This document shows positions 15,337 to 59,982 of a stretch of DNA of 64,000 nucleotides, piece after piece (positions within the stretch are counted from its first letter, which is position 1; each line of letters opens with the position of its first letter). The translations under genes were made by a program, and so were the position numbers. Origin of the DNA: an uncultured Microthrixaceae bacterium (GTDB lineage: Bacteria; Actinomycetota; Acidimicrobiia; Acidimicrobiales; DATDAH01); contig CAZWMT010000006.1 in NCBI GenBank assembly GCA_964635055.1, positions 70,896 through 134,895 on the forward strand. Direction: 5' to 3'. The notes under the pieces were generated by a model, which saw only the letters and a list, made by a program, of their open reading frames with translations, had not been told where the DNA came from and ran no database searches.

Positions 15337-15391
15337 CACGAAGTCGGCGCCGTTGATCCGCCGACAGCGGACTGGATGCGCCGACTTCGTG
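15337..15391. promoter_or_regulatory. Perfect 14-bp inverted repeat (CACGAAGTCGGCGC / GCGCCGACTTCGTG) with nested CCGC/GCGG stem, in divergent intergenic region
   Basis: Arms at 15337-15350 and 15378-15391, separated by a 27-nt spacer. It sits between the RCC1 gene start (15292, minus) and the methyltransferase ATG (15419, plus). The structure is read directly; its function (operator or 5' UTR hairpin) is inferred. Confidence 0.5.
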
Positions 15392-15418
15392 GGGTCACGG
15401 GCCAGACTCGGCCGCAGG

Positions 15419-18549: not shown

Positions 18550-18550
18550 C

Positions 18551-19237: not shown

Positions 19238-19254
19238 ACGCAGGGCAGGGCGCG

Positions 19255-19302
19255 TTCTGGCACCGGATTCCGGTGCTACCGCCCCGAAGTCCGGTGCCAG
19301 TT
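19255..19302. repeat. Family-A palindromic element, diverged copy (A1)
   Basis: TTCTGGCACCGGATTCCGG...CCGAAGTCCGGTGCCAGTT. The arms CTGGCACCGGA (19257-67) and TCCGGTGCCAG (19290-300) pair perfectly. It lies between convergent genes (M23 stop 19237, VOC stop 19341). Confidence 0.75.
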
Positions 19303-19340
19303 CACCAGTTCAGGGGGCGGCGCCCCACCTCTGGGGCGGC

Positions 19341-19793: not shown

Positions 19794-19883
19794 CGACCTC
19801 TCCTCGTCCTCGGCGTGGCGTCCGGCACGGCCACGGTTCTGCAACACGGTCTGCAACACCGGGCGCCGCCCCGGTATGCCGGA

Positions 19884-20330: not shown

Positions 20331-20340
20331 GGCGCGGAGG

Positions 20341-21456: not shown

Positions 21457-21485
21457 CGCACCGTCACCATGGGGGAGAGTGAACC

Positions 21486-22139: not shown

Positions 22140-22150
22140 TGTATCCCTCG

Positions 22151-22198
22151 TTCTGGCTCCCGATTCGACCGCGATAGCGATCGAATCGGGAGCCAGAA
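22151..22198. repeat. Family-A palindromic element (A2), perfect 18-bp stem; probable bidirectional terminator
   Basis: TTCTGGCTCCCGATTCGA (22151-68), a 12-nt loop, then TCGAATCGGGAGCCAGAA (22181-98). It sits between convergent stops at 22139 (+) and 22215 (-). Confidence 0.85.
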
Positions 22199-22214
22199 GC
22201 ACGGAGGTCCGAGG

Positions 22215-24464
22215 TCAGGCGGGGGTGACGGTGACGGGGACGCCGTTCAACACGGCGTTGCCCGACAGTGGGTCGAGCGCGCCGTCGTCGGTCAGGACGT
22301 TGGTGTTCACGCCGGCGTGGGCCGCGGCCACCGCCATCTGTGCGCCGGAATCGTCGTGGCCCCACCCGTGGGGCAGGCTGACCACACCGGCCAGGATCTC
22401 GTCGGTCACCTCGACCGGCGCCACCACCTTGCCCACCCGTGAGGTCACCTCCGCCTGGCCGCCGTCGCGGAGGCCCAGCCGATCGGCGTCGTCGGGGTGC
22501 ACCTGCAGCGTGCACCGGTCCTTGCCCTTCACCAGCACGTCCACGTTGTGCATCCACGAGTTGTTCGAACGCACGTGGCGCCGGCCGATCAGGGTGAGGT
22601 GCCCGTTGCGGGGCGCGCCCAGCGCCTCCACGAGCCGGGGCAGGTCGGCGAGGAAGGCGTCCGGCGCCAGCTCGACCTGGCCGGTAGGGGTCTTGAGCAC
22701 CTCGGGGATGCGAGGTTGGAGGGGCCCGAGGTCGAGGCCGTGGGGGTGGTCGAGCAGGGTCTGGAAGGTGACCCCGTCGGGGTTCGCCCCGAACCCGTCG
22801 CCGTACGCCCCGGTGCGAACCATGGCTTCGAGCACCTGCTCGGGGCCGTCCTCGGCCACCATCAGGGCGAGCAGGTCGGCCACCGTCTTGCCCTCCGCCA
22901 CGCCGCCGGGCTTGGTGGCCCGGCCGAGCACCCGGTCGAGCACGAGGCCGTCGATGATGGCCGGATCCGCGGTGGCGCCCATCCCGCCCAGCACGAGCGC
23001 GAGGCGGGCGAGGATGGTGTGCTCGGGCAGCTGGTCGGCGGGGTCGGCGGGCAGCACCGCGGGCGAGTAGTTGGCCACGTTGCGCACCGACAGGGTGGTG
23101 AAGGCGAGGTCGTAGTGACTCTTCTCCAGGGCGTCGGGGGGCGGCAGGATCACGTCGGCGTGGCGGGTGGTCTCGTTGCGGTAGGGGTCGATGCTCACCA
23201 TGAACTCGAGCGACGCCAGCGCCGACTCGAGGTGGGTGCTGTTGGGCGCCGAGCGGGCCGGGTTGCCGGCGAGGGTGATGAGCGCCCGCACCTGCCCGTC
23301 GCCCGGTGTCTCGATCTCGTCGGCGAGGGTGGCGATGGGGAACTCGGAGCGGACCTCGGGGTGGCCCTTCACCCGGCTGGTGGACCGGCCGGTGCTGAAG
23401 CCGCGACCCTTGCCCGAGCCCTTCGCGCCGGTGAGGGCGAGTGGGAACATCATCCCGCCGGGACGGTCGAGGTTGCCGGTGAGGGCGGTGACGAGGTCAG
23501 ACGCCCAGGAGGCGATGGTGCCGAAGGCGACGGTGTTGGTGCCGATGCGCCCGTAGACCGCGGCGGACTCGGCGGCGGCGACCTCACGGGTGAGGCGGCG
23601 GATGGTGTCGGCGTCGATGCCGGTGTGCTCGGCGACGGCCTCGGGGGAGAAGGGCTCGACCGCGTCGCGCACGGCCTCGATCCCGCTGAACACCGCAGGA
23701 TCGAGCTCGGCCGACACGAGGTCCTCGGCGAACAGCACGTGGACCATGGCTAGGAGGAGGTGGCCGTCGGCACCGGGGCGGATGGGCACGTGCTCGTCGG
23801 CGTTCTTGGCCGTCTTGGTCAGCCGCGGGTCGACCACGACCACCTTCCCGCCGCGGGCACGGATGGCTTCGAGGCGGCCGGGGAAGTCGGGCGCGGTGCA
23901 CAGGCTGCCGTTCGACTCGTACGGGTTGGCACCGAGCATCAGCAGGTGGCTCGTGCGATCGAGGTCGGGGACGGGAATGGCGTCGGGGCTGCCGTACATC
24001 GCACCGCAAGAGACGTGCCGGGGCATCTGGTCGACGGTGCTGGCCGAGTAGAGGTTGCGGCTGGCCAGCGAGGTGATCAGGGCCCGGGCGTAGATGCCGG
24101 CGCCGAGGTTGTGCACGGTCGGGTTGCCCAGGTACAGCGCCACCGCATCTCGTCCGTGCTCCTCCATGAGGGGCAGGAGGCGGCGCTCGATCTCGGCGAA
24201 GGCCTCGTCCCAGCTCACCTCGGCCCAGGTGGCGTCGGCGCCCTCGCCGGAGCGGATGAGCGGCCGGCGGATTCGGTCGGGGTCGGTGTGGAGCTGCTTC
24301 AGGGTCGAGCCCTTGGGGCAGATGAACCCGTGGCTGAACACGTCGTCGCGGTCACCCCGGATGCGCACCACCTCGTCGCCCTTGGTGGTGATCTCCAGCC
24401 CGCACGTGGCCTCGCACAACGGACAGGTGCGGAAGTGCGTCTGCGTCTCGGCGCTGTCGGTCAC
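22215..24464 (-). CDS. Molybdopterin (bis-MGD) oxidoreductase, formate-dehydrogenase-like
   Basis: GTG start at 24464. The N-terminal 4Fe-4S Mo/W-bis-MGD motif is 'CPLCEATCGLE...FICPKG'. Length 749 aa. Confidence 0.9.
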   Translation of the reverse strand: MTDSAETQTHFRTCPLCEATCGLEITTKGDEVVRIRGDRDDVFSHGFICPKGSTLKQLHTDPDRIRRPLIRSGEGADATWAEVSWDEAFAEIERRLLPLMEEHGRDAVALYLGNPTVHNLGAGIYARALITSLASRNLYSASTVDQMPRHVSCGAMYGSPDAIPVPDLDRTSHLLMLGANPYESNGSLCTAPDFPGRLEAIRARGGKVVVVDPRLTKTAKNADEHVPIRPGADGHLLLAMVHVLFAEDLVSAELDPAVFSGIEAVRDAVEPFSPEAVAEHTGIDADTIRRLTREVAAAESAAVYGRIGTNTVAFGTIASWASDLVTALTGNLDRPGGMMFPLALTGAKGSGKGRGFSTGRSTSRVKGHPEVRSEFPIATLADEIETPGDGQVRALITLAGNPARSAPNSTHLESALASLEFMVSIDPYRNETTRHADVILPPPDALEKSHYDLAFTTLSVRNVANYSPAVLPADPADQLPEHTILARLALVLGGMGATADPAIIDGLVLDRVLGRATKPGGVAEGKTVADLLALMVAEDGPEQVLEAMVRTGAYGDGFGANPDGVTFQTLLDHPHGLDLGPLQPRIPEVLKTPTGQVELAPDAFLADLPRLVEALGAPRNGHLTLIGRRHVRSNNSWMHNVDVLVKGKDRCTLQVHPDDADRLGLRDGGQAEVTSRVGKVVAPVEVTDEILAGVVSLPHGWGHDDSGAQMAVAAAHAGVNTNVLTDDGALDPLSGNAVLNGVPVTVTPA

Positions 24465-24515
24465 GAGTGTCCCCCTCGATGGCGTACCCCTGATCCTGCC
24501 ACCGGTTCCCCGAAC

Positions 24516-24556
24516 TCAGCGCAGAATCCGGCGCGCGACGCCGGAAGTTGCGCTGA
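24516..24556 (-). terminator. Imperfect long hairpin downstream of ppk2
   Basis: TCAGCGCA-gaa-TCCGGCG-cgcga-CGCCGGA-agt-TGCGCTGA. It lies 38 nt after the PPK2 stop (24594) and 52 nt before the oxidoreductase start. There is no U-tract, as is usual in GC-rich actinobacteria. Confidence 0.45.
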
Positions 24557-24593
24557 CTTCGAGGCTGGCTCGTGGTCACGGGTGCGGGGGGCG

Positions 24594-25358
24594 TCAGCGC
24601 AGGAGGGTGCGGGCGGGGGCGGCGATCGCGGGGTCGGGGGCCACGGCCGCCGCCGGGTCCTTGCCGTCGTAGTCGAGGGAGTGGAGCACGTGGCGGATGG
24701 CGTGGAGGCGGGCGACCTTCTGGCGGTTGGCGTTCACGCCCGTCCACGGGGCCCACTCGGTGTCGGTGGCGTCGAGCATGGTGTGCAGCGCCTCGGTGTA
24801 GGCGTCGTACTTCTCCATGGCCACCTCGTCGATGGGGCTGATCTTCCACGCCTTGAGTGGATCCTCGCGGCGCTCTTGAAGGCGCTCGGCCTGCAGGTCG
24901 CGGTCCACGTCGAGGTAGAGCTTGAACAGGTGGACGCCGTCCTCGACCAGGGCCTGCTCGACCTCGGGGGCCTGACGCAGGAACAGGCGGTGCTGGTCGT
25001 CGGTGCAGAAGCCCATCACCGGCTCGACGCCGGCCCGGTTGTACCAGGAGCGGTCGAAGAAGACGATCTCGCCGGCGGTGGGGAGCTGCGCCACGTAGCG
25101 CTGGAAGTACCACTGGCCCTTCTCGGCGTCGCTCGGCTTCGGGAGGGCCACCACCCGGGCCTGGCGGGGGGCGAGGTGCTCGCGGAAGGCCTCGATGGTG
25201 CCGCCTTTGCCGGCGGCGTCGCGCCCCTCGAGCAGGATCACCACCCGCGCCCCCGAGGCGATCACCCACTGCTGCAGCTTCACCAGCTCCAGGTGCAGGG
25301 CGTGGAGTTGCTCGTCGTAGTCGTCGCCGTCGATCTTCGGGGGACGCGTCAGGGCCAC
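24594..25358 (-). CDS. ppk2: Polyphosphate kinase 2
   Basis: 'VVILLEGRDAAGKGG' (Walker A) and 'FDRSWYNRAGVEPVMGF'. The GTG at 25358 is chosen because the ATG at 25457 would overlap the upstream gene by 71 nt. Confidence 0.9.
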   Translation of the reverse strand: MALTRPPKIDGDDYDEQLHALHLELVKLQQWVIASGARVVILLEGRDAAGKGGTIEAFREHLAPRQARVVALPKPSDAEKGQWYFQRYVAQLPTAGEIVFFDRSWYNRAGVEPVMGFCTDDQHRLFLRQAPEVEQALVEDGVHLFKLYLDVDRDLQAERLQERREDPLKAWKISPIDEVAMEKYDAYTEALHTMLDATDTEWAPWTGVNANRQKVARLHAIRHVLHSLDYDGKDPAAAVAPDPAIAAPARTLLR

Positions 25359-25386
25359 GGTCGGCTCGCCTGGGGATCCGTGGCCG

Positions 25387-27123
25387 TCAGCGCTGGCCGC
25401 GCACGAGGCGGCCGGGACGGGCGCCCGTGTCGACGTCGTTGCGGCGGGTGACGGCACCGGCCACCACGGTGGCGGTGTAGCCGGACGCCTCCTGCAGCAG
25501 GCGCCGCCCGCCGCCGGGGAGGTCGTGGGCGAGCCGGGGTGAGCGCAGGGTGAGCGCGGCGTGGTCGATCACGTTGAGGTCGGCCCGTTGGCCGACCTCC
25601 ACCGTGCCCCGGTCGCCGAGGCCGTAGAGCTGGGCGGTGCGCTGGGTCTGCATCTGGATCACGCTCTCCAGCGACAACTGCGGCCCGCGGCTGCGGTCAC
25701 GGGCCCAGTGGGTCAGACCGTAGGTGGGGAGTGAGGCGTCGCAGATCATCCCGCAGTGGGCGCCCCCGTCCCCGAGCCCGAGCGCGGCCCGGGGATGGGT
25801 CATCTGCTCGCGGAGCACGTCGTGGTTGCCGTGGGTGTAGTTGAACAGCGGCAACATGAGCAGGGCCCGGCCCTCGTCCTCGCAGAGGAGGTCGTAGACC
25901 ATCTCGTCGGCGCTGACCCCGGCGGCCTCGGCCAGCGCCGCCGCCGACTGGTCAGGGGTGGGCTCGTACTCGGGTGGGTCGCCCATGACGAACAGCTTCT
26001 GGGGAATCGTGCGCAGGAAGGACGGGAGGCCGGCCCAGAGGCTGCCGTCGCCCGGCGCGTCCTCCTCGGTGAGGATGGCGGCGCGGACCTTCGGCTCGCG
26101 CAGTCGGCGCACGCGCTCGTCGAGGGGCAGGCCGGCGAGGGTCAGGTACGACGGTCGCAGCGCGAACGGGTGATGGGTCTGGAACCCGATCAGCATCCCG
26201 AACGGCCGGTTGGCGATCTGGGGGTAGATCTCGGCGCCCTCGTCGAGCGCCGTCATCGACTCCTCCATCTGCATCTTCCAGAGGTCCGGGGCGAGGTCGA
26301 CCTGCAGGACGATGAAGGTGACCGGGCGTTCGATCTCGGCGGACAGGCGGCGCATCCAGCTCATCTCCGCCGCGGCCGGCGAGAGATCGAGGCCGTCGAC
26401 ACCGGCGGGGGCGAGCTCGAAGATGGAGGCGCCGCCGCGGGCCATCGCCCGGCCGATGCCGAACAGCTCCTCTTCGGCGGCGTACGTGCCCGGGACGGGC
26501 TCGCCGTCGATGGCCCGGTGGGCGATGGTGCGCGAGGTGGAGAAGCCGAGGGCGCCGGCCTCCACCGCCTCCTGCACGATGTCGGCCATGGCCGCGATGT
26601 CCTCGGGGGTGGCAGGCTCGTTGCGGGCGCCGCGCTCGCCCATCACGTAGCCGCGCACGGCCCCGTGGGGGATCTGGGTGCCGATGTCGACCGCGAAGTG
26701 CCGGGCGTCGAGGGTGTCGAGGTACTCGGGGAAGGTCTCCCAGCCCCACGTCATCCCTTCCGCCAACGCAGTGCCGGGGATGTCCTCCACGCCCTCCATG
26801 AGCTGGATGAGCCACTCCTCCTGGCCGGGGTGGACGGGGGCGAAGCCGACGCCGCAGTTGCCCATGACGAGGGTGGTGACGCCGTGGCCCGCCGAGGGGT
26901 CGAGCGAGGTGTCCCAGGTGGCCTGGCCGTCGTAGTGGGTGTGGATGTCCACGAACCCCGGCGTGACCAGTTGGTCGGTGGCGTCGATGGTCTCGGCCGC
27001 CTCGGCCTCGATGGACGGAGCCACCTCCGTCACCAGGCCGTCCTTGACGCCGACGTCGGCGCGGCGGGCGTCTGCCCCCGTGCCGTCCACCAGCGTTCCC
27101 CCCGTGATGATCATGTCGAACAT
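25387..27123 (-). CDS. N-acyl-D-amino-acid deacylase (D-aminoacylase) family amidohydrolase
   Basis: 'MFDMIITGGTLVDGTG', 'TPGFVDIHTHYDGQATWD', 'GNCGVGFAP'. A strong SD (GAAGGAGGG) lies 11 nt upstream of the ATG. Confidence 0.85.
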   Translation of the reverse strand: MFDMIITGGTLVDGTGADARRADVGVKDGLVTEVAPSIEAEAAETIDATDQLVTPGFVDIHTHYDGQATWDTSLDPSAGHGVTTLVMGNCGVGFAPVHPGQEEWLIQLMEGVEDIPGTALAEGMTWGWETFPEYLDTLDARHFAVDIGTQIPHGAVRGYVMGERGARNEPATPEDIAAMADIVQEAVEAGALGFSTSRTIAHRAIDGEPVPGTYAAEEELFGIGRAMARGGASIFELAPAGVDGLDLSPAAAEMSWMRRLSAEIERPVTFIVLQVDLAPDLWKMQMEESMTALDEGAEIYPQIANRPFGMLIGFQTHHPFALRPSYLTLAGLPLDERVRRLREPKVRAAILTEEDAPGDGSLWAGLPSFLRTIPQKLFVMGDPPEYEPTPDQSAAALAEAAGVSADEMVYDLLCEDEGRALLMLPLFNYTHGNHDVLREQMTHPRAALGLGDGGAHCGMICDASLPTYGLTHWARDRSRGPQLSLESVIQMQTQRTAQLYGLGDRGTVEVGQRADLNVIDHAALTLRSPRLAHDLPGGGRRLLQEASGYTATVVAGAVTRRNDVDTGARPGRLVRGQR

Positions 27124-27126
27124 GTC

Positions 27127-27269
27127 GCTCTGTCCCTCCTTCGTCGGGACGGCTTCGCCATCCGGTTCGTCCTCGGTGCTGCTCCACTCCGTTGCGCAGC
27201 GTCGGTCCTGCGTCGGGACGGCTTCGCCATCCGGTTCGTCGGTGCTGCTCCACTCCGTTGCGCAGCGTC
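27127..27269. repeat. Family-B element, two tandem copies (B1, B2), supplying the 5' leader/SD of the D-aminoacylase gene
   Basis: Units 27141-27203 and 27211-27269 (CGGGACGGCTTCGCCATCCGGTTCGTC..GGTGCTGCTCCACTCCGTTGCGCAGCGTC). 27127-27169 is the reverse complement of 30744-30786, identical over 43 nt. Confidence 0.9.
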
Positions 27270-27305
27270 ACCGCCGCCGGGTGCTTCCCCCGTGACCCCA
27301 GTCTC

Positions 27306-27782
27306 TCAGGTGGTGGGGCCCGTGGGGTCCTCGGGGGTGTGGTCGATGCCCGTGGTCGAGTAGCCGTCCATGATGTGCTCCATCCACCACACCGGCGCGG
27401 CGTCGAGCAGCCCTTGGAGGTCGGGGTAGTCCCACCAGCGGGTGAGGCGGCCCTCGAAGTCGATCTCGTGCACCGAGACGAAGCGCACCGTGAAGGTCTC
27501 GCCGGTGTGCCAGTGCCACTCCTCGGCGTGCTCGGTCATCACGCACTGCTCGTCGGCGACGATGCGCCCGGGGTGGTGGAGGATGTCCTCCAGGGGCTCG
27601 AGGCCGAGGCGCAGACGCGCGGCGATCTGTGCCGGGCCGATGGCCACGTCCTCGTCGGGCGTGAACACGTCGGTGTACTGCCCGTCCGGCGTGAAGTACG
27701 CGCCCACCGCCTCGAAGTCGCGCCGGTAGAGGTCCTGCCAGAAGCGCTCGATCAGTTCCCTGTTGGCGTCGGCTGTCCGCAT
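27306..27782 (-). CDS. SnoaL/NTF2-like (limonene-1,2-epoxide-hydrolase-like) protein
   Basis: 'NRELIERFWQDLYRRDFEAVGAYFTPDGQYTD'. Size is 158 aa. Fold call is from memory. Confidence 0.7.
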   Translation of the reverse strand: MRTADANRELIERFWQDLYRRDFEAVGAYFTPDGQYTDVFTPDEDVAIGPAQIAARLRLGLEPLEDILHHPGRIVADEQCVMTEHAEEWHWHTGETFTVRFVSVHEIDFEGRLTRWWDYPDLQGLLDAAPVWWMEHIMDGYSTTGIDHTPEDPTGPTT

Positions 27783-27814
27783 GCCGCGACGTTAAGGCGT
27801 CCACGGCTGGGTCG

Positions 27815-27870
27815 GGAACTGGCTCCCGATTCGACGGTCCTGGCGGTCGAATCGGGAGCCAGGACGGATC
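27815..27870. repeat. Family-A palindromic element (A3)
   Basis: GGAACTGGCTCCCGATTCGAC-ggtcctggcg-GTCGAATCGGGAGCCAGGACGGATC. The 17-bp stem is perfect. It lies in the divergent region between 27782 (-) and 28016 (+). Confidence 0.9.
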
Positions 27871-28015
27871 TGCGGACGGCCACGCCGCGCGGTCCCTCGG
27901 CTCAGGGGTCCCGACCCGCCCTGGCGCCAGGAAGTGACTTTGCGCCCTAGGCCCACGAGGCGGACCGGTCGATCATGGGTACGGGCGGCCCGCAGTCACC
28001 CATGAGGAGCGAACG

Positions 28016-30553
28016 ATGCGAGCGATCCGGATCTCGACCTCGGTGGTGGCGACGACGGCGCTCGTCGCCCTGCTCACGTTGGCCTCGGGCCCTGCCGTGG
28101 CCGCACCGGCGCGGGCCCACATCGTCACCGCGTCGCCGGAGGTGACCGTCGTGTCGGTCGCGAGCGCCGGCGATTACCGGCGGGCGCTCGCTGACCTCTC
28201 GCGCCTGGTGGGGACGGGCTCCAGTCGCATCGAGGTCACCGCCGACTTCGCCATGAGCGGCTCGGCGTGGCCCACCTACGACGGGTCCCGCTCGCTCACC
28301 GTCGACGGCAACGGCCACCGGGTGGACGGGGGCCCGGCCCTGCGCCCGTTCCTGCTGGTCGAGGGCGGTCCGGCGGTGAAGGTGCAGGACGTCACCCTCG
28401 CCGGCTTCCGCAACTCGGCGATCATCGCTACGCCCGATGTGCTCGACCGGTGGGGCCAGCTGATCGTGCGGCGCAGCCGGTTCAGCGGGAACTCGGCCTC
28501 TGGACCGGGTGGCGCGATCGCCGCGGCGTGGGTGGACGTCAACCAGAGCACGTTCGACGGCAACCACGCGACCGGTGAGGACCACTGGGGCGGCGGCGCC
28601 GTCTACGCGCAGTACTACCTGACCGCCACCCGCAGCACCTTCACCGGGAACTCGTCCGACTTCGACGCGGGCGCGCTCCAGTCGTCGGGCGACCTCTTCC
28701 TGAACGCATCGACCGTCGTCGACAACACCTCCCCGGCCACGTCCGTACACGTCGACGACACCCTCGAGTCGATGGGGTCGGTCGTCGCCAACACCCTCGG
28801 CGGTGGTGAGGGCTGCGCGGTCGGAACCACCAATGACCACGGCAGCTTCTCGTCCGACGCATCGTGCGGCTTCGACATCACCGACGCCACCGATCCCGGC
28901 CTGGCACCGCTGGCCGACAACGGCGGCGCCACGCCCACCCGCATGCCTGGCGAGGACTCGCCCCTCGTCGATGCCGGGCCCGGCGGTGACCCGCTGTCCG
29001 ACCTGTTCTGCTACCCGACCGACCAGCGTGGGGTGCGCCGCCCGGTGGGCGGGGCGTGCGACCTCGGTGCGGTCGAGCGGGGCTGGGGCCAAGTGGTGAC
29101 GACCGGTGCCGACGCCGGGCCGGGCTCGTACCGCCAAGCCGTCGTCGACGCGTCGGCCGCGACCCTGCCGGTGCGCATCGACCTCGACCAGCAGCAGGTG
29201 TCACTCACCAGCGGGGACGTCGTCTACAGCGGCGTTCAACCGCTGGAGGTGCACGGCGTGCCGGGCGCGGGGATCGACGGTGGCGGTGCCGGTCAGATCC
29301 TGCGGGCCACGGTCTCGCCGTCGGTCTCGGTGGTGGACCTGGTCCTGCAGCACGGGGCGTCGGACGACTCGGGCGGCGCGGTCGAGGTCGAGGCCACCGG
29401 CGGGGACCTGACGATCGAGCGCTCCGCCCTCCTCGACAACTCGGCCGACGTGTACGGGGGCGCGGCCGGCTCGCAGGGCACCCTGGTGGTGCGCAACTCG
29501 ACGGTGTCGGGCAACGAGGCCGGCATCGGCGGCGGCGGGGTCGCCGCCGCGGGGGTGCTCACCCTCGAGCACGCCACGGTCACCGACAACACCTCGGGCG
29601 TGGGGGCCAACGCTGCGGGCTTCTCGGCCATCCACTCCTTCGGCTCCGTCCTCGCCGAACCGCACGGCCCGTCGAACTGCTCGTTCTCCGGGGCCACCGT
29701 GTCGGAGGGTCACAACTACTCGACCGACACCACCTGCAACCCGGGCACCGGCACCGACGTGGCCAGCGGTGCCGATCCCCGCCTCGGACCGGCGCGCGAC
29801 AACGGGCGGGCGACCCCCACACGTTTCCCGCTGGCGGGATCACCGCTCGTCGACGCCATCCCCGTCGAGGACTGCCGGGCGCCGTTCGACCAGCGTCAGG
29901 TCGACCGCCCGTTCCCGGTCGAGGGCCCGTGCGACATCGGTGCCATCGAGGGCGTGTACCCGGGCCACCACTTCACCGACGTCCCGGACAAGTACGACGC
30001 CGCCGTGCGCTGGATCTCGAGCGACGTCAACGATCCCGCGCTGATGACCCCCTACGCCGGCGGGGCGTTCCTCCCGAGGCTCAGCCTGACCCGCGGCAAG
30101 CTGGCGCTCACGCTCTACCGCCAGGCCGGTACGCCCGACGTGTCGTCGTTGCCGCCCGTCGCCTTCACCGACGTGCCCGCCGCGCAACGAGACGCCGTGC
30201 GGTGGGCGGTCGGCACCGGCATCCTCGCCGGGCGCACGCCGACCCGCTTCGGGACCGGCGACCCCAGCACACGTGTCCAGGTGGCCGGTGCCCTCTACCG
30301 TGCCGCCGGGTCACAGGACGTCACCCCGTTCCCGTTCCACGGGCTCGATGACGTCCCCGCATGGGCCGACGACGCGGTCACGTGGGCCGTGCACCACGGG
30401 ATCATGGTCGGGTCCGGAGGGTCGTTCCACTCCCGGGAGCCGGTCACCCGCGGCCAGTTCGCCCGATCCGACTACCGGATGGTCATCGACCCGGGAGCCT
30501 GGGCCGACCCGTCGGCGGCGCCGTCGACGGTGCCGTTCCGCCCCTCACCCTGA
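28016..30553 (+). CDS. Secreted right-handed beta-helix (PMP/choice-of-anchor-Q-like) protein with 3 C-terminal SLH domains
   Basis: SD GAGGAG is followed by ATG 28016, then a signal peptide 'ALVALLTLASGPAVAAPA'. Beta-helix repeats ('GGAI..', 'F.GN.A') are present. The motifs 'DQRGVRRPVGGACDLGAVE' and 'DQRQVDRPFPVEGPCDIGAIE' follow. SLH units: 'FTDVPDKYDAAVRW', 'FTDVPAAQRDAVRW', 'LDDVPAWADDAVTW'. Confidence 0.75.
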   Translation: MRAIRISTSVVATTALVALLTLASGPAVAAPARAHIVTASPEVTVVSVASAGDYRRALADLSRLVGTGSSRIEVTADFAMSGSAWPTYDGSRSLTVDGNGHRVDGGPALRPFLLVEGGPAVKVQDVTLAGFRNSAIIATPDVLDRWGQLIVRRSRFSGNSASGPGGAIAAAWVDVNQSTFDGNHATGEDHWGGGAVYAQYYLTATRSTFTGNSSDFDAGALQSSGDLFLNASTVVDNTSPATSVHVDDTLESMGSVVANTLGGGEGCAVGTTNDHGSFSSDASCGFDITDATDPGLAPLADNGGATPTRMPGEDSPLVDAGPGGDPLSDLFCYPTDQRGVRRPVGGACDLGAVERGWGQVVTTGADAGPGSYRQAVVDASAATLPVRIDLDQQQVSLTSGDVVYSGVQPLEVHGVPGAGIDGGGAGQILRATVSPSVSVVDLVLQHGASDDSGGAVEVEATGGDLTIERSALLDNSADVYGGAAGSQGTLVVRNSTVSGNEAGIGGGGVAAAGVLTLEHATVTDNTSGVGANAAGFSAIHSFGSVLAEPHGPSNCSFSGATVSEGHNYSTDTTCNPGTGTDVASGADPRLGPARDNGRATPTRFPLAGSPLVDAIPVEDCRAPFDQRQVDRPFPVEGPCDIGAIEGVYPGHHFTDVPDKYDAAVRWISSDVNDPALMTPYAGGAFLPRLSLTRGKLALTLYRQAGTPDVSSLPPVAFTDVPAAQRDAVRWAVGTGILAGRTPTRFGTGDPSTRVQVAGALYRAAGSQDVTPFPFHGLDDVPAWADDAVTWAVHHGIMVGSGGSFHSREPVTRGQFARSDYRMVIDPGAWADPSAAPSTVPFRPSP

Positions 30554-30579
30554 CGGGCCGCGCGGACCGGCTGTCAGCA

Positions 30580-30635
30580 GATCCGTTCTGGCTCCCGATT
30601 CGACCGCCAGGACGGTCGAATCGGGAGCCAGTTCC
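30580..30635. repeat. Family-A palindromic element (A4), inverted relative to A3/A5
   Basis: The reverse complement matches A3 at all but about 4 positions over about 66 nt, flanks included. It starts 27 nt after the stop at 30553. Confidence 0.9.
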
Positions 30636-30710
30636 CGATCTGTCCGCTCGACCCGTCCTGGGTCGTGGGAGGGTGGTGGTGATCGGCGGGGTGGGGCGTG
30701 GGGACGTGGG

Positions 30711-30786
30711 AGGCTGCGCAGCGGAGCGGAGCAGCGGCGCCGTCGAACCGGATGGCGAAGCCGTCCCGACGAAGGAGGGACAGAGC
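30711..30786. repeat. Family-B element (B3), inverted relative to B1/B2, supplying the 5' leader/SD of the downstream gene
   Basis: GCTGCGCAGCGGAGCGGAGCAGCGGCGCCGTCGAACCGGATGGCGAAGCCGTCCCGACGAAGGAGGGACAGAGC, followed directly by agcATG (30790). Confidence 0.9.
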
Positions 30787-30789
30787 AGC

Positions 30790-31509
30790 ATGGAGAAGCT
30801 GATGTACGTGGTGCGGGACCCGGCACGGGGGAGTGGTGACGGACTGCGCGACGCGCTGATCGGGGCCACCGACCGTTTCGTCGCCGCGGGCGCACGGGCG
30901 CTGACCGTCGACGCCGACGACTCGGCGTCGGACGTGGCGCCACCCCTGCCGCCCCCCGAGGACGAGCCGAGCTTCCGAGCGCTCGTGTCGGTGTGGCTCG
31001 CGAGCTACGAGCGGCGGGGCCCGATCGAGGCGCTGCTCGACGAGCTGGTGCCCGACTACGACGGCTACCTGGTGGTCGAGTCGCTCTACACCGACTACGG
31101 CGAGAACGCCCACGCCGCGCCCCGCGACTGGCCCGACGGCCGGCGCTCGCCCGGCCTGCTCACCGTGACCCTGCTGCAGAAGCCCGATGCCCTGTCGTAC
31201 GAGGAGTGGATCGACCACTGGCACGGGCACCAGTCACCCATGTCCGAGGCCATGCAGCCCCGCTCCCGCTACGTGCGCAACGAGGTGGTGCGGGGCGTGA
31301 CCCACGACGCCCCGCCGTGGCGGGCCATCGTCGAGGAGGCGTGGCCCAGCCCGGAGCACATCACCGACCCGTTCCTCTTCTACTCCGCCTCCTCGCAGGA
31401 CGAGCTGAACGCCAACCTGGCCACGATGCTCGACAGCGTCAACACCCTGACCGACCTGTCCACCCTGCGGGTCGCCACGATGAGCGAGTACCTCCTCCGC
31501 TCGCTGTGA
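30790..31509 (+). CDS. Hypothetical protein, possibly EthD-like dimeric alpha/beta-barrel
   Basis: ATG 30790 follows a strong SD. Codon bias is high. 'MEKLMYVVRDP...' and 'LLTVTLLQKPDALSYEEWIDHWHGHQSP' resemble EthD-type halves. The function call is weak. Confidence 0.6.
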   Translation: MEKLMYVVRDPARGSGDGLRDALIGATDRFVAAGARALTVDADDSASDVAPPLPPPEDEPSFRALVSVWLASYERRGPIEALLDELVPDYDGYLVVESLYTDYGENAHAAPRDWPDGRRSPGLLTVTLLQKPDALSYEEWIDHWHGHQSPMSEAMQPRSRYVRNEVVRGVTHDAPPWRAIVEEAWPSPEHITDPFLFYSASSQDELNANLATMLDSVNTLTDLSTLRVATMSEYLLRSL

Positions 31510-31526
31510 GTCGAGCCGAGCCGAGC

Positions 31527-32372
31527 TCAGTCGCTCACGGCGTCGAGCCATGCGACCGCGGCGTCGAGGTGGTGGTGGATCCGGTCGTGGCCGCCTCCGG
31601 CGCTGGCGCGCGCCGCTGCCGCCAGGGCGTGGGCCACGTCCGGGCGGGCCGCCAACACGCCAAGGGGCACCACCTGCACGCGGATGGTGAACAGCACCGC
31701 GCCCGAGCGGGGAAGGCGTCGCAGGGTCTGGCGCTCGCTGCGCAGCCACAGCCGGTCGCCGGCGCTCGCGGGGGTCACCCCGGCGGCGGGTGGCGGGTGC
31801 TCGGGGGCGAACAGCGTGGGGTGGTCGTGCACGCCCCAGTTGCGGCGCACGACGATGCGGCCCTCGGGGAGGCGCTCGAGGAAGCGGTCCACCTTGGTCG
31901 ACAGCTCGGTGGCGTAGTGGGGGACGGGGCCGTGGATGGCCGCCGCCGAGCCGCCGATCTTGTCGGCCAGGCGCCAGTGCGACGGGAAGCTGAGCGACGC
32001 GGCCACGAGCCGGGACGCCCCGTCGCGCTCCGCCATCAGGCACAGGTCCTCCTGCACCAACAGCCCCGCGGCCTCGAGCGGGTGCCGGTCGGGGTCCACC
32101 GCCAGGGCTGCCTGCGGGTGATGGGTCGACAGGGCACCGACGATCAGGTCGAGCGCCTCCTGCCCGGCCGCCTCGGTGCGGGCGAGGGCGGCGAACACGT
32201 CGTCGCGACGTTCGGCGAGCAGCCGGCGCTTCAGGGCCAGCTCGTCACCTCGTCGATCGTCCACCTCCAACCAACGGTCCTCGGCGATGGTGCGCAAGCC
32301 CATGTGCAGCCAGGGTGGCCCGGGCTCGAGCACCAGCTCGTCCAGCCACGCCGGCGGGGGCGTGTGCGACAC
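31527..32372 (-). CDS. DUF3445-like (heme-dependent oxidative N-demethylase family-like) protein
   Basis: 'MGLRTIAEDRWLEVDD', 'LVQEDLCLM', 'SLSFPSHWRLADKIG', 'VRRNWGV'. The GTG at 32372 is chosen; the alternative is the ATG at 32303. Family call is from memory. Confidence 0.6.
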   Translation of the reverse strand: MSHTPPPAWLDELVLEPGPPWLHMGLRTIAEDRWLEVDDRRGDELALKRRLLAERRDDVFAALARTEAAGQEALDLIVGALSTHHPQAALAVDPDRHPLEAAGLLVQEDLCLMAERDGASRLVAASLSFPSHWRLADKIGGSAAAIHGPVPHYATELSTKVDRFLERLPEGRIVVRRNWGVHDHPTLFAPEHPPPAAGVTPASAGDRLWLRSERQTLRRLPRSGAVLFTIRVQVVPLGVLAARPDVAHALAAAARASAGGGHDRIHHHLDAAVAWLDAVSD

Positions 32373-43149: not shown

Positions 43150-43347
43150 ATGAGCGAAGCCGACAACCTGACAGGGCGTGAGCGGGCCGTCGTCGCGGCC
43201 GTCGCCGCGCTGATCGCGGTGCTGGCCATGCTGCGGCCGACCCCGTCGCTGGGCGACCAGGACGACCGCGTCGACGTCGTGCCGATCGACGCCACCGCGC
43301 TCAGCGGCGCCGGCCCGCGCGCCTCGGCGGCCCCGTCTGCGGGCTAG
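43150..43347 (+). CDS. Small membrane protein (65 aa)
   Basis: '[30 protein letters not shown]...'. One TM helix and near-saturated GC3. Its end overlaps the convergent gene by 4 nt. Confidence 0.45.
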
Positions 43348-43871
43348 CCCGCGCGGTTGCGCCGCTTGCGCCGTAGCGCCCAGCTGAGCGCGAACAGCAC
43401 CGCGGTGAGGGCCACGCCGATGCCCACCTTCTTGGCGGGCCCGGACCTGGCTGCGTCGTCGCGGGGGCTGGGCGCCGTCGTGGCGCCGGAGGCGGGCACG
43501 GGGGCGGCCCCGGTCGTGACCGGCTCGGGCTCGGCGACCGGCTCGGCCTCGGGCTCCGCGACAGCCTCGGGCTCGGCGACAGCCTCGGGCTCGGCGACAG
43601 CCTCGGGCTCGGCGACAGGCTCTGGCTCTGGCTCTGGCTCTGGCTCGGGCTCGGGCTCGGGCACGGCGAGAGCCTCGGCGGCCGGTTCGGATTCGGCAAC
43701 CAGCTCGGGTTCGGGCTCGGCGATCGTCTCGGGCTCGGCGACCGGCTCCGGGTCGTCGGCCGCAGGGTCGGAGTCGTCGGCGGCGACGTCGAGCAGGTCG
43801 TCCACGGGTGCGGGCTCGTCGCTCGCCGGCTTGGGGCGGGCGTGGCCCTTCTGGGGGTCGTAGGTGGCCAT
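43344..43871 (-). CDS. Acidic, Pro/Glu/Ala repeat-rich protein with C-terminal TM anchor (tail-anchored), ParA-associated
   Basis: The start is 7 nt after the ParA stop. 'AEPEAV' x4 and 'EP' x8 repeats. It ends with '[27 protein letters not shown]'. Confidence 0.7.
43558..43660. repeat. In-frame coding tandem repeats: 18-mer (GCGACAGCCTCGGGCTCG) x3 then hexamer (GGCTCT/GGCTCG) x7
   Basis: Read directly: 18-mers at 43558, 43576 and 43594, and hexamers over 43617-43658. Confidence 0.9.
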
Positions 43872-43877
43872 CTGCTG

Positions 43878-44654
43878 CTAAGTGTGGTCGGGGACGACCT
43901 GGCCGAGCAACGTGGCGAACTCCGCGGCCGCGGTGTCGGCCCCGGGGCGGTGGCCGAGCGCGTGCAACGGCATCGACTGCGCCGACGCCTCGGCGATGGC
44001 CGCGCGCAGGTGGATCGGGCCGAGCACGAGCGGGCCGTACGACTCCACGAGCTGGTCGTGCCAGTAGCGGGCGTCGCGGGTGCGTCCCAAGCGGTTCACC
44101 ACCACGCCTGCGGTGGTGAGGTCGATGCGCTGGCGCTCGCGCACCCGGTCGATGGTGCGCAGCATCTGGGCCACACCGTCGGAGGCCCAGGCGGCCGGCT
44201 CGCTGACCACCACCACCCGGTCGGCGGCGACCAGCCCGTTGACCGTGAGCAGCCCCAGCGACGGCGGGCAATCGATGATGACGAGGTCGTGGGGGATGCC
44301 CTTGAGGGCGGTGCGCAGCCGGTCCTGGGCACCCACTGCGTCCGTGGCCAGCTGCAGCTCACGCCCGGCCAGGGCCGGCGTGCTGGGCGCGACGTCGGGC
44401 ACCGTGCCCTCGCCACCGGGCCATGCGGCAGGGATCACGACACGCTCGAGGCCACCGGGCTGGTCGACGGCCAACGCGTCGTCCACCGTGGTGGACGCGT
44501 CCCACACGCCGAGACCCGTGGTGGCGTTGGCCTGGGGGTCGAGGTCGACCACCAGCACCCGCCGGCCCTGGAGGGCAGCGGCGGCGGCGAGTCCGAGGGC
44601 GACGGTGGTCTTGCCCACCCCACCCTTCTGGTTGGCCACGGCGAGGACCGGCAT
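43878..44654 (-). CDS. ParA/Soj/MinD-family P-loop ATPase
   Basis: Deviant Walker A 'VANQKGGVGKTT', 'VLVVDLDPQANAT', 'DLVIIDCPPSLG'. 258 aa. Confidence 0.9.
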   Translation of the reverse strand: MPVLAVANQKGGVGKTTVALGLAAAAALQGRRVLVVDLDPQANATTGLGVWDASTTVDDALAVDQPGGLERVVIPAAWPGGEGTVPDVAPSTPALAGRELQLATDAVGAQDRLRTALKGIPHDLVIIDCPPSLGLLTVNGLVAADRVVVVSEPAAWASDGVAQMLRTIDRVRERQRIDLTTAGVVVNRLGRTRDARYWHDQLVESYGPLVLGPIHLRAAIAEASAQSMPLHALGHRPGADTAAAEFATLLGQVVPDHT

Positions 44655-50498: not shown

Positions 50499-50544
50499 GG
50501 GGCCGAACGACGAAGGAGGGCAACGGGACCTGGCGGACAGGGCT

Positions 50545-50600
50545 GGAACTGGCTCCCGATTCGACGGTCCTGGCGGTCGATTCGGGAGCCAGAACGGATC
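50545..50600. repeat. Family-A palindromic element (A5)
   Basis: GGAACTGGCTCCCGATTCGAC-ggtcctggcg-GTCGATTCGGGAGCCAGAACGGATC. There is one stem mismatch. It lies between convergent stops at 50498 (+) and 50626 (-). Confidence 0.9.
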
Positions 50601-50625
50601 GTCCGGCGGCCAATCCGCGCGGCCC

Positions 50626-51855
50626 CTACGCCAGCAGGTTGCGGGCGATCTGGGAGACCTGGATCTCGTCGGTGCCGGCGTAGATCTGGAGGACCTTGGC
50701 GTCGCGGGCGAGCTGCTCGACGTGGTACTCGGCCATGTAGCCGTTGCCGCCGAAGACCTGGACGGCTTCGAGGGCGACCTCCATGGCGGCCTGGGCGGAG
50801 TAGAGCTTGCAGGCGCTGGCCTCGGTGAGGTCCATGCCCGAGCCGGCGGCCGCCATCTCGATCTGGCGGAAGACCAGGTTCTGGATGTTGAGGCGGGCGA
50901 CCTCCATCTTCGCCAGCTTCAGCTGGATGAGCTGGAACTCGCCGATGGGCTTGCCGAACTGCACCCGCTCCTTGGCGTAGTCGGTGCAGAGCTCGAGGCA
51001 GCGCTCGACGATGCCGAGCGCCATCGCCGCGACACCGGTGCGCTCCATGTTGAAGGTGGCCTTGGCGCCGTCCCGGCCGCCGGCGGGCAGGTCCTCGGTC
51101 TCGCCCAGCAGTCGGTCGATGCCCACGCGGACGTCGTTGAGGAAGAGCTGGCCCGTGGGGGAGGAGTGCATGCCCATCTTGCGGAGGGGCTTCGACTGCT
51201 CGAGGCCCGGCATGCCCGCATCGAGCACGAAGCTGAGGATCTTGCGCTCGTCGCTCGGGTTCCCTTCGTCGAGCTTGCAGATGAACACGATGGTGTCGGC
51301 GTAGGGGCCGTTCGTGATGAAGGTCTTCGAGCCGTTCAGCACGTACTCGTCGCCGTCACGGCGGGCGGTGGACTTCATGGAGCCGAAGGCGTCGGAGCCC
51401 GAGTCGGGCTCGGTGATGGCCCACGACCCGATCTTGTCGAACGTGAGGAGGTCGAGCGCCCAGCGCTCCTTCTGGGCGGTGGTGCCCTTGGACATGATCG
51501 CGGAGGCGGTGAGGCCCACGCTGACGCCCATGGCCGTCACCATGCCGGGGCAGTAGCGGCACAGCTCGATGATGGGGATGAGGGTGAGCGAGCCGTCGCC
51601 GCCCCCTCCCTCCCTCTTCTCGCCCGCCTCCACGGGTGTCTCGCCGTCGGCGGCCGCCTTCTCGCGGTCCATCTGGCGCTTGAAGCGGTCACGGGCCATG
51701 GCGTCCATGCCGAAGGTGGACCACAGCTTGCGCAGCACGTCGTAGGGCGGGGTGTCGCCGTGCTCGAGCTCCTCGAGGTTGGGGACGATCTCGGCCTCCA
51801 CGAACCGCCGCATGGCGTCGCGCAACATCAGGTGCTCTTCGGTCCACTCGTACAT
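50626..51855 (-). CDS. Acyl-CoA dehydrogenase
   Basis: ATG 51855 ('MYEWTEEHLMLRDAMRRF'). 'GSWAITEPDSGSDA', 'KTFITNG', 'QVFGGNGY', 'IYAGTDEIQ'. Confidence 0.9.
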   Translation of the reverse strand: MYEWTEEHLMLRDAMRRFVEAEIVPNLEELEHGDTPPYDVLRKLWSTFGMDAMARDRFKRQMDREKAAADGETPVEAGEKREGGGGDGSLTLIPIIELCRYCPGMVTAMGVSVGLTASAIMSKGTTAQKERWALDLLTFDKIGSWAITEPDSGSDAFGSMKSTARRDGDEYVLNGSKTFITNGPYADTIVFICKLDEGNPSDERKILSFVLDAGMPGLEQSKPLRKMGMHSSPTGQLFLNDVRVGIDRLLGETEDLPAGGRDGAKATFNMERTGVAAMALGIVERCLELCTDYAKERVQFGKPIGEFQLIQLKLAKMEVARLNIQNLVFRQIEMAAAGSGMDLTEASACKLYSAQAAMEVALEAVQVFGGNGYMAEYHVEQLARDAKVLQIYAGTDEIQVSQIARNLLA

Positions 51856-58863: not shown

Positions 58864-58923
58864 TCGCTCGGATTGGCGCCTGATGCTCGTCCTGACCCTC
58901 GCGTCGGGCGCCGGTTCGCGTGC

Positions 58924-59982
58924 TCAGGGACCGGGCGCCGCCGTCGTCGGCGTGGTCGCCGGGGGCAGGGTGGTCGGCGTCGGGGCGCCGCCCGGCAGGT
59001 CGGCCTCGAGGGCGGCGAAGATCGCGTTGGCGGCGCGGTCGCCACCGGCCCGGGTGAGGTGGATGCCGTCACTGTTGCGCATGTTCACCAGCTCGCCGCC
59101 GGCGCCGGTCAGGTAGTCCGAGTAGCTGCCGTTCTCGTCCTCGAACAGGTCGTACAGCGACACCACGGTGGTGTTGGGGTGGTCGGCGGCCACGTCGGCG
59201 AAGATGCCGTTCATCAGCCGGAGTCGGGCCGAGTAGTCGGCGTCGCGGGCGATGGGCTGGCCGATCCAGTACACCCGGACCCCCTGCTGTTCGAGGTAGG
59301 TCATCACCGCGTCGACCCGGCGGGCGTACGCGGCGTTCCACTCGGGGTCGCCGGGCTGGAACACACCAGTGTCGAGCTCCATGCCCTGGCCGTCGTTGGC
59401 CCCGAACACCACCACCATCGCGTCGGGGTGGTTGGTCTCCACCACCGACTGGATCTCGGCGGGCCAGTTGTAGAAGTCGGGTCGGGTGAGGCCACTCGAG
59501 AACTCGAAGTCGAGCGTGGCCTCCATCACACCGGTGGAGTCGGCCCGCTCGATCAGCGACTGGCCGAGGACCTCGGCCTGCGAGTCGCCCACGATCCAGA
59601 TCGTGAGCGGGTCCTCGGCGGTGGGCTCACGGAGGGCGGCGGCGTCGGCTGCGGGGGGCGGGCCCTCGGTGGGCGCCTCGGCCAACTCGTCGAAGGCGGC
59701 GGCGTCGCCGAAGGTGTGGCCCAAGGCGTCGTCGGCGGTCTGCCGCGGGCGGTCCAGCAGCACGAGGTGGCTGAGCCCGTCGATGGGCCTCACCAGCGCC
59801 AACTCCACCGTCCGCTGCCAGCCGAACGGCTGGCGTTCGATGATGCGCAGCAGGCTCGAGGCGTTCATCAGCGTGAACAGGCCGAACGCCACGACGCCCA
59901 CGATCGTGACCTGCCGCAGGGTGAGCGGGCGGGTCTCGGGGGCCGGAGGCGGGCGCAGTGCGGTGCGTTGGTGCTCGGGCAT
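58924..59982 (-). CDS. SGNH/GDSL-like hydrolase (DUF459-type), membrane-anchored; partner of MBOAT
   Basis: TM 'VTIVGVVAFGLFTLM'. 'IWIVGDSQAE' (GDS block), 'VVVFGANDGQ', 'NSDGIHLT' (DxxH). Confidence 0.75.
   Translation of the reverse strand: MPEHQRTALRPPPAPETRPLTLRQVTIVGVVAFGLFTLMNASSLLRIIERQPFGWQRTVELALVRPIDGLSHLVLLDRPRQTADDALGHTFGDAAAFDELAEAPTEGPPPAADAAALREPTAEDPLTIWIVGDSQAEVLGQSLIERADSTGVMEATLDFEFSSGLTRPDFYNWPAEIQSVVETNHPDAMVVVFGANDGQGMELDTGVFQPGDPEWNAAYARRVDAVMTYLEQQGVRVYWIGQPIARDADYSARLRLMNGIFADVAADHPNTTVVSLYDLFEDENGSYSDYLTGAGGELVNMRNSDGIHLTRAGGDRAANAIFAALEADLPGGAPTPTTLPPATTPTTAAPGP

Follow-up and report, generated by a model that had tools for sequence, protein, structure and literature searches.

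A probably copy-propagated palindromic repeat family near gene 3′ ends in Microthrixaceae and related Acidimicrobiales

Several kinds of short, dispersed palindromic repeats have been described in bacteria. Repetitive extragenic palindromic (REP) sequences can form inverted dimers (REPINs; Bertels & Rainey 2011, PMC3116915). The RAYT-REP systems of Nunvar et al. 2010 are all proteobacterial, mainly gamma (PMC2817692), and tagged REPs have been found across 8 phyla (Di Nocera et al. 2013, PMC3733652). The Tuberculosis Rho-independent terminator motif (TRIT) has 147 copies in M. tuberculosis (Gardner et al. 2011, PMC3152330). [quoted passage not shown] Here we describe a palindromic hairpin repeat, family A, in a 64,000-nt stretch of DNA (the window; G+C 71-74%) from an uncultured Microthrixaceae bacterium (GenBank assembly GCA_964635055.1, contig CAZWMT010000006.1, positions 70,896 to 134,895). 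Its copies are dispersed at unrelated loci in several species, and single intergenic spacers gain, lose or exchange copies between species. We consider it likely, with a probability of about 0.7, that family A belongs to the REP/TRIT type of palindromic repeats, is propagated by copying without being autonomous, is confined to Microthrixaceae (Acidimicrobiales) and is retained at gene 3′ ends. We found no previous description of family A, which joins the REP, TRIT and SPRITE-like repeats by kind.

Like family A, REPs and REPINs are extragenic palindromes found mostly downstream of genes, between convergent or co-directional open reading frames (ORFs) (PMC2817692, PMC3116915, PMC3733652). Family A is likewise extragenic, with 35 of 38 copies in convergent or tandem spacers and six copies in 64 kb. 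In both groups compensatory changes preserve the palindrome, several classes exist per lineage, inheritance is mostly vertical with turnover, and there is no target-site duplication. The differences concern sequence, size and arrangement. The REP head is GTAG/GTGG or CGTC, whereas family A has the flank (C/G)(G/C)-WW (W, A or T) instead: in an alignment of 57 copies (A1), (C/G)(G/C)TT precedes the stem and TTC(G/C) follows it, and CGTC occurs by chance in one copy, at 27819, on the reverse strand. REPs measure 20-40 bp, with stems of 8-9 bp in the CGTC class (PMC3733652), while the family-A core is 44 nt long with an essentially perfect stem of 20-21 bp. Moreover, REPs form inverted dimers (REPINs) or clusters (BIMEs), whereas family-A copies are singletons. 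Finally, REP systems have a RAYT gene that lies between two inverted REPs; none was seen for family A among the window ORFs and the genes of loci L062-L073 (L numbers denote fetched sequences of related genomes or metagenomes).

As described, TRIT is also a conserved palindromic hairpin of a high-GC actinobacterium, with dispersed copies at gene termini in one lineage. As in family A, TRIT is mostly bidirectional and lacks canonical U-tract logic (PMC3152330). However, TRIT overlaps the end of the coding sequence, with a peak at about -8 from the stop, whereas family A lies +6 to +60 past the stop. The host class also differs (Mycobacterium versus Acidimicrobiia), and the subfamily exchange and empty sites between species that are documented for family A are listed here as a further difference. 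Prokaryotic MITEs, including SPRITE, share with family A a small, non-autonomous, intergenic body with inverted termini, a stable RNA structure with a possible terminator-like role, and a copy number that varies between related genomes. The family-A unit of 52-105 nt, whose arms are inverted repeats by construction, has the size and the terminal inverted repeats of a MITE. Unlike MITEs and SPRITE, family A shows no target-site duplication and no U-tract, no parent insertion sequence (IS) was seen in about 0.75 Mb of sequence, and the whole element is one perfect hairpin. Compared with a canonical intrinsic terminator, the GC-rich hairpin is present and the U-tract absent. The first-pass annotation of the window had called the element REP/MITE-like. 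This description suits its behaviour; the defining features of REPs (GTAG/CGTC head, inverted dimers, a RAYT) and of MITEs (target-site duplication, a parent IS) were not seen.

Hairpin structure and subfamilies

Searching the window for the 17-nt arm CTGGCTCCCGATTCGAC with up to 3 mismatches gave 8 matches against 0.40 expected, a number reached in 0 of 100 shuffles. The eight arms pair into four near-perfect 44-nt hairpins, at 22153-22196, 27819-27862, 30588-30631 and 50549-50592. A repeat finder clusters five copies as one group (D12), and a covariance model (R1) recognizes six in the window, including a diverged copy at 19251 and a decayed one at 58867, in mixed orientations. The five copies of the first-pass annotation are thus all present with essentially the same coordinates, among them the inverted copy (placed there at 30580), the copy with one arm mismatch (50545) and the diverged copy (19255). 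Its description of the core, with a loop of 10-12 nt, needs correction, the stem being longer (20-21 bp) and the loop only 4-6 nt. It had also reported asymmetric flanks common to three copies, and these are confirmed: the copies at 27819, 30588 and 50549 share 87-93 nt at 87-90% identity (repeat finder D20, I1 and I2). An oriented unit of about 100 nt, as proposed there, therefore exists in three of the six copies, which we call the long form, and does not hold family-wide, where the unit is about 52-56 nt.

This family-wide unit can be written (C)G-WW-CTGGC.CC.GA...20-bp stem...TC.GG.GCCAG-WW-C(G). Copies with perfect arms are each exactly 44 nt, with a stem of 20-21 bp and a loop of 4-6 nt in which CAGG is the commonest centre. 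In the 57-copy alignment the stem base is invariant (C7, G9, G10, C13, C14, G16, A17 and their partners) and the upper stem covaries freely. The alignment is gapless, 92.9% of its cells are paired, and double-sided changes occur in 11 of 22 pairs (77 cells). None of 500 shuffles reaches the observed covariation, and sliding the partner columns leaves 19-47% of the cells paired. Folding gives z values of -3.3 to -10 across the copies folded, and the transcribed hairpin has about -40 kcal/mol.

Profile and regular-expression searches of the fetched loci revealed variant hairpins with the same ends and loop and with different, mutually complementary upper stems, namely CTGGCTCCCGATTTCGGTGCC, CTGGCACCGGATTTCGGTGCC (which includes the window copy at 19251), CTGGCGCCYGATCTACTGGCC and others. 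The number of non-redundant sites per subfamily is 48 for type A, 7 for CTGGC[A/T]CC[G/C]GATTTCGGTGC and 4 for CTGGCGCCYGATCTACTGGC, each at several loci and in several genomes. Family A thus consists of discrete multi-copy subfamilies with a shared invariant stem base and compensated changes in the upper stem. An identical subfamily sequence at different loci cannot come from drift in place. The conserved termini G-WW-CTGG...CCAG-WW-C are kept even where the interior differs or pairs poorly (L063, L066:13637 and L070), and some orthologous copies are decaying (L010:1371, window 58867 and L071:12286).

The WW dinucleotides next to the stem fall into classes. Among 65 matches to the type-A pattern, 27 have TT/TT, 16 AA/AA, 15 TT/AA and none AA/TT; one variant copy, L010:3126, does have AA/TT flanks. 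TT/TT and AA/AA represent one class seen on opposite strands (43/65), in which the dinucleotides face each other unpaired, while those of the TT/AA copies (15/65) are paired. Where the dinucleotides are TT/TT, the loop is centred on CAGG/CAGA in 18 copies and on CCTG in 4. The flank classes and the bias of the loop centre indicate that family A has an intrinsic polarity even though it is palindromic.

The long form, about 105 nt, was found at 27796-27911, 30552-30650 and 50524-50627 in the window and twice in the sister species (L007 4903-5018, at a site that corresponds to none of the window copies, and L062, with a different core). Its additional sequence, about 36 nt at one end and about 20 nt at the other, lengthens the hairpin. 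The flank motif of the long form was not found without a hairpin, nor were subfamily-specific long flanks; sequence beyond the 52-nt unit is unrelated even within one subfamily. Among four aligned long forms (the three of the window and that of L007), identity is 98.5% at the 34 arm positions, 93% in the loop and 71% in the co-inherited flanks (Fisher p = 2e-19). While the rest drifts, either selection or repeated copying from master sequences keeps the arms constant.

Distribution, gene context and turnover

An exact-pattern scan of species-representative genomes found 25 loci, all in four metagenome-assembled genomes (MAGs) labelled Acidimicrobiales or Microthrixaceae. The same kind of scan of metagenomes added 36 loci, in assemblies under 15 other accession prefixes; the window's own contig is in neither collection. 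Once identical flanks are collapsed, 45 non-redundant sites remain, and their neighbour genes are unrelated. Because this census was drawn with an exact-arm pattern, the apparent conservation of the arms outside the window is inflated. Extra copies free of this ascertainment occur about once per 35 kb of related loci, and the closest relative found is the MAG JBGAOY01 (GCA_044221555.1), with about 91-92% nucleotide identity over 18 kb. The first-pass annotation had named an absence of further copies, or their confinement to one conserved operon context, as findings that would speak against a repeat family. Instead, there are 45 perfect-arm sites in four MAG species and 15 prefixes, plus the variant subfamilies, and the flanking genes are unrelated across loci. 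Two patterns gave no match in IMG/VR, and PLSDB gave none either; a phage or plasmid vector was therefore rejected on the basis of these viral contigs and plasmids. A known RNA family was rejected as well: Rfam had 0 matches at the gathering score over the whole window, and lowering the threshold to E<=1 for 27000-31000 brought up nothing but a spurious miRNA. A literature search by sequence returned a single match, a chance 14-nt overlap with a Thauera 16S fluorescence in situ hybridization probe.

The statistics of gene context rest on crude, heuristic gene calls from third-position G+C (GC3) over non-redundant loci. All copies are intergenic. Of the 38 copies that could be assigned to a type of spacer, 16 fall between convergent genes, 19 between tandem and 3 between divergent ones; divergent spacers make up 26% of the spacer DNA, so that copies are depleted there (binomial p = 0.006). 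Cores start 6-60 nt past the stop, at a median distance of 26.5 nt; in 35 of the 38 the distance is <=60 nt. In tandem spacers the polarity is co-oriented with the upstream gene in 10 cases and opposed in 6; the orientation of family A does not follow transcription. Copies are single, with nearest neighbours at least about 350 nt apart and genes between them. In L010 and L055 nearly every spacer is occupied, with four copies each in about 3 kb between the acyl-CoA dehydrogenase and SDR genes. In another pair of loci, L046 (1172-1870) and L058 (4420-5139), homology starts exactly at a family-A copy and is absent beyond it, which suggests a synteny break or indel boundary.

Comparison of orthologous spacers shows how the copies change. 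L010 and L055 come from two species with about 88% nucleotide identity; four spacers are filled in both, with the same polarity, and in three of them the subfamilies differ. In L031 and L036 one spacer holds type A in both, and the next holds two different subfamilies. The spacer between the acyl-CoA dehydrogenase and DAO oxidoreductase genes contains a type-A long form in the window and, in the sister JBGAOY01 (L062), an oppositely oriented long form whose core differs; in JACJWK01 (L063) it has a diverged member, and in the more distant L066 an unrelated 22-bp palindrome. Between the CMD-family and molybdopterin oxidoreductase genes, type A in the window corresponds to another subfamily in the opposite orientation in L073, to a third variant in L070 and to a spacer of only 12 nt in L069.

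The L069 locus (JAEUJM01; its oxidoreductase has about 93% amino acid identity to that of the window) lacks the copies at 19251, 22153, 27819 and 30588, and the covariance model found no family-A member in its 22 kb. The spacer orthologous to that of 19251 has a short hairpin of its own instead, and no copy follows the stop orthologous to 30551-30553. At 27819 the window differs from L069 by a 109-nt insertion (27803-27911) with the direct repeat GTCC at its bounds. Thus the insertion polymorphism that the first-pass annotation had suggested looking for does exist, in the four window copies missing from L069 and in the different subfamilies or orientations of other relatives. The empty and exchanged spacers imply that copies are dispensable at individual loci and that, over the time in which species diverge, they come, go and give way to others.

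On a window gene map from GC3-based calls and Pfam, the gene contexts given in the first-pass annotation hold: three copies lie between convergent stops (19251, 22153 and 50549), one after a stop (30588) and one in a divergent spacer (27819). The diverged member (19251..19306, core 19257-19300, plus strand; 56.3 bits with R1) has the arms CTGGCACCGGATTC / GAAGTCCGGTGCCAG of the CTGGCACCGGATTTCGGTGC subfamily, and its spacer separates an M23 peptidase gene (stop 19237) from a glyoxalase gene (stop 19341). The copy at 22147..22202 (stem 22151-22198, plus strand) is a type-A short form of the fully palindromic class (TT...AA), scoring 66.7 and 65.3 bits on the two strands, in the 75-nt spacer that separates the stop of the CMD-family gene (22139) from that of the molybdopterin oxidoreductase gene (22215); as RNA it folds at about -45 to -50 kcal/mol (z -7.7 to -10). 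The long form at 50524..50627 (core 50549-50592, minus strand; 71 bits), with one arm mismatch, fills the 127-nt spacer between the DAO oxidoreductase (stop 50498) and acyl-CoA dehydrogenase (stop 50626-50628) genes. The decayed sixth copy (58867..58920, plus strand), GATTGGCGCCTGATGC...GTCGGGCGCCGGTTCGCG, is akin to the CTGGCGCCYGATCTACTGGC subfamily and scores 21.7 bits (E 3e-4, filters off); it lies in a convergent spacer and ends 3 nt before the stop of a DUF459/SGNH gene (58924..59982, minus strand).

The remaining two copies are long forms inverted relative to each other. The first (27796..27911, core 27819-27862), with its canonical left flank at 27898-27863 and right flank at 27818-27803, scores 72.2 bits on the minus strand and lies in the divergent spacer 27783-28015 between a SnoaL-like gene (start 27782) and a gene for an SLH/beta-helix surface protein (start 28016). 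The second (30552..30650, core 30588-30631), in the canonical orientation on the plus strand, scores 79.3 bits and folds at -62 kcal/mol (z -5.9). It directly follows the TGA stop (30551-30553) of the SLH/beta-helix gene (28016..30553) and precedes a co-directional gene (30790..31509). The SLH/beta-helix gene is the only window gene between inverted family-A copies. A composite transposon around 28016..30553 was considered, since inverted long forms bracket the gene; yet L069 has the gene without the repeats, so the SLH gene is not transposon cargo. As a separate observation, this gene (28016-30553, plus strand) is an insertion relative to the gene order of L071 and L073, where a 243-aa gene adjoins the SnoaL-like gene.

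Possible mechanism and competing explanations

Discrete subfamilies at unrelated loci, spacer turnover, polarity, pairing of the whole stem and an invariant stem base together fit REP-type behaviour, and we hold with considerable confidence that family A is an interspersed, copy-propagated repeat family. New copies would be made by a trans-acting DNA enzyme that recognizes the folded hairpin, probably by its conserved stem base and the usually unpaired WW dinucleotides. The substrate is probably single-stranded DNA, handled by the HUH/Y1 logic of RAYT and IS200/IS605-type enzymes. Enzymes of this kind act on hairpins in single-stranded DNA. Such an enzyme would account for an element that must pair, has a polarity of its own, leaves no target-site duplication and is oriented without regard to transcription. 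Mobilization by specifically this mechanism is offered as a tentative proposal. The long form may be a derivative whose extra flanks extend the hairpin. At gene 3′ ends insertions would do no harm, which could be why copies persist there. Once transcribed, the hairpin might act at the 3′ end of one convergent mRNA or of both, as a barrier or a pause structure; the chances that family A works as a 3′-end RNA hairpin are about even.

A mobilizer was looked for in several ways. No transposase or RAYT domain of Pfam was found in 50 window ORFs (every GC3-called gene plus large ORFs in the gaps), in agreement with the first-pass annotation, which had noted no transposase in the window. About 0.75 Mb examined contained no isolated single arms, IS or transposase, and thus no half-site that would speak for a parent IS. 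The first-pass annotation had also suggested a check for target-site duplications, which turned out negative: at boundary offsets of 0-9 in 61 non-redundant copies, direct repeats of 3-5 nt are no commoner than in shuffled pairings. The WW dinucleotides match as direct repeats in 43 of 65 copies only, and no CGTTCG-like target occurs in the empty sites of L069. A 2-bp TT duplication in a CGTTCG target, which would fit the 43/65, was therefore discarded, as it fails for the 15 TT/AA copies, the missing AA/TT class among the 65 type-A matches and the empty sites. Other candidates were discarded as well. A 161-aa ORF between two L010 copies, considered as a RAYT, has an acidic product without any domain. 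Although a T-loop-like TCGAATC is part of the arm, ARAGORN detected no tRNA, which speaks against a tRNA-derived element. In integron attC sites the GTT and AAC motifs are arranged around the stem in the opposite order to family A, and no integrase or cassette array is present.

Several observations weigh against a mobile, copy-propagated repeat that acts at gene 3′ ends. No mobilizing enzyme was found in the 50 window ORFs or in the called genes of about 150 kb of orthologous loci (including L062-L073), and no isolated half-site, the expected trace of a parent IS, was seen. Nor was any insertion caught with a fresh junction; the filled and empty sites compared belong to species about 7-9% diverged, which blurs the exact insertion boundaries, and a short direct repeat, GTCC, turns up in a single comparison (27803-27911). 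In part, the perfection of the arms in most census copies results from searching with an exact-match pattern. The persistence of positions across species and the conservation of the arms far above the flanks would fit a host-selected functional motif as well. As for an RNA role, no U-tract follows the hairpin, whose 3′ flank is TTCG or AAC(G), and a terminator scan of 18000-32000 found none. Intrinsic termination by mycobacterial RNA polymerase reportedly depends on a U-tract (PMC3993855), which casts doubt on termination as such.

The main competing explanation, a host-selected 3′-end signal in the manner of TRIT, casts the hairpin as a sequence-specific RNA (or DNA) signal that selection maintains and that some protein of the cell recognizes, such as a dsRNA-binding, termination or processing factor; its spread through gene conversion or recruitment would be secondary. 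The two explanations are not exclusive of each other. Occupied spacers stay occupied across species, always near a stop; the stem base is invariant beneath a freely covarying upper stem; the arms of the long form are 98.5% identical against 71% in the flanks; and convergent spacers of relatives without family A can hold unrelated hairpins (L066, L069). All of this would be expected of a signal. However, its orientation in tandem spacers should not be unbiased (10 co-oriented, 6 opposed) given such a clear polarity, a few copies occur in divergent promoter spacers (for example at 27819), and copies are dispensable, with none in the 22 kb of L069 and only 12 nt left between its CMD-family and oxidoreductase genes. 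Identical subfamily sequences at unrelated loci would still require a copying mechanism. Moreover, of the 3′ ends mapped in M. tuberculosis, no more than 2-4% were overlapped by predictions of the TRIT type (10.1101/2022.06.01.494293). The host signal seems to us unlikely.

An origin as a classical MITE is more improbable still. Under this reading a DDE-type IS elsewhere in the genome would have the arms as its terminal inverted repeats, and the hairpin would be an extreme internal-deletion derivative mobilized in trans (cut-and-paste or copy-paste). Size (52-105 nt) and intergenic placement fit MITEs (PMC10969869), the termini G-WW-CTGG...CCAG-WW-C are common even to members with a different or poorly paired interior, and one filled/empty comparison has a 4-bp direct repeat. 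Yet the 61 non-redundant copies show no variable target-site duplication at any offset, the 0.75 Mb examined holds neither isolated arms nor an IS or transposase, and compensatory changes keep the whole 20-bp stem paired, which recognition of terminal inverted repeats by a DDE transposase does not need. A dyad-symmetric binding site in double-stranded DNA, either the operator of a dimeric regulator or the site of a nucleoid-associated protein, is extremely improbable. The copies would then be a regulon or structural sites. A palindrome with invariant positions in each half-site and several copies near acyl-CoA dehydrogenase genes are what such a site might look like; on the other hand, 35 of 38 copies lie downstream of stops and not in promoters, which already makes this reading unlikely, the neighbour genes are functionally unrelated, positions that a protein would not touch covary between the arms, and sites are present or absent between close species. 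An operator of lipid metabolism in particular was ruled out by the position of the copies and the mixed functions of the neighbour genes.

Returning to the copy-propagated repeat, a more specific and quite speculative idea is that an undescribed hairpin-specific DNA enzyme of Acidimicrobiia might install, invert and replace palindromic cassettes of about 50 nt at gene 3′ ends, and/or that a dedicated RNA-binding factor might read the invariant stem base with its unpaired WW bubble. If true, the enzyme would explain the differing subfamilies and orientations in the same spacer of sister species, and the RNA-binding factor would define a factor-dependent 3′-end formation in a lineage without U-tract terminators. 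By itself, family A reveals no new mechanism. It provides Microthrixaceae and related Acidimicrobiales MAGs with a recognizable repeat and a working covariance model; it marks gene 3′ ends, may cause assembly breaks and could serve strain typing. After TRIT, it is a second actinobacterial case of a sequence-conserved, dispersed gene-end hairpin without a known mobilizer or reader. The subfamily exchange and empty sites in related genomes make the spread and reading of such hairpins more tractable by comparative and metatranscriptomic work.

Other features of the window

A second repeat family, B, of about 65-80 nt (GCGCAGCGGAGCGGAGCAGC..GACGAACCGGATGGCGAAGCCGTCCCGACGAAGGAGGGACAGAGC), has copies in the window at 27121-27203, 27208-27271, 30710-30792 (inverted), 58660-58723 and 58744-58807, and in relatives at about 3600-3690 of L069 and about 6728-6800 of L073. 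Twice it ends in a Shine-Dalgarno sequence directly before an ATG, that of an amidohydrolase gene (25387..27123, minus strand) and that of a 239-aa gene (30790..31509, plus strand). Copies of this repeat can stand in tandem, and it lies upstream of orthologous genes in some relatives and not in others. Family B has no Rfam match and may be a dispersed 5′-leader or promoter cassette.

A perfect 15-bp hairpin, GAGGGAGCCTCGACG-AAT-CGTCGAGGCTCCCTC, occurs at 42634-42666 in a low-coding stretch upstream of an S8 peptidase gene. It is exactly present in the sister species (L062 19143-19171) and does not belong to family A according to the covariance model. The gene at 15353-16462 (plus strand) encodes a D12-class (Dam-like) N6-adenine DNA methyltransferase and is kept in L069, L070 and L071; among the Pfam matches of the window ORFs there is no restriction-enzyme domain.

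The window also has two adjacent paralogous genes for RCC1-repeat/SpaA-domain proteins (10768-12978 and 13040-15292, minus strand), whose signal-peptide regions are 89% identical and which have many internal repeats. A third RCC1/SpaA paralogue, of 1204 aa, is located between the PPK2 and molybdopterin oxidoreductase genes in L069 and L070 and is missing there in the window. Finally, an 18-nt tandem repeat (43502-43805) lies in an ORF (43344..43871, minus strand) that encodes a highly acidic, proline-rich low-complexity protein; this ORF is directly downstream of a ParA/MinD-like ATPase gene (43878..44654).

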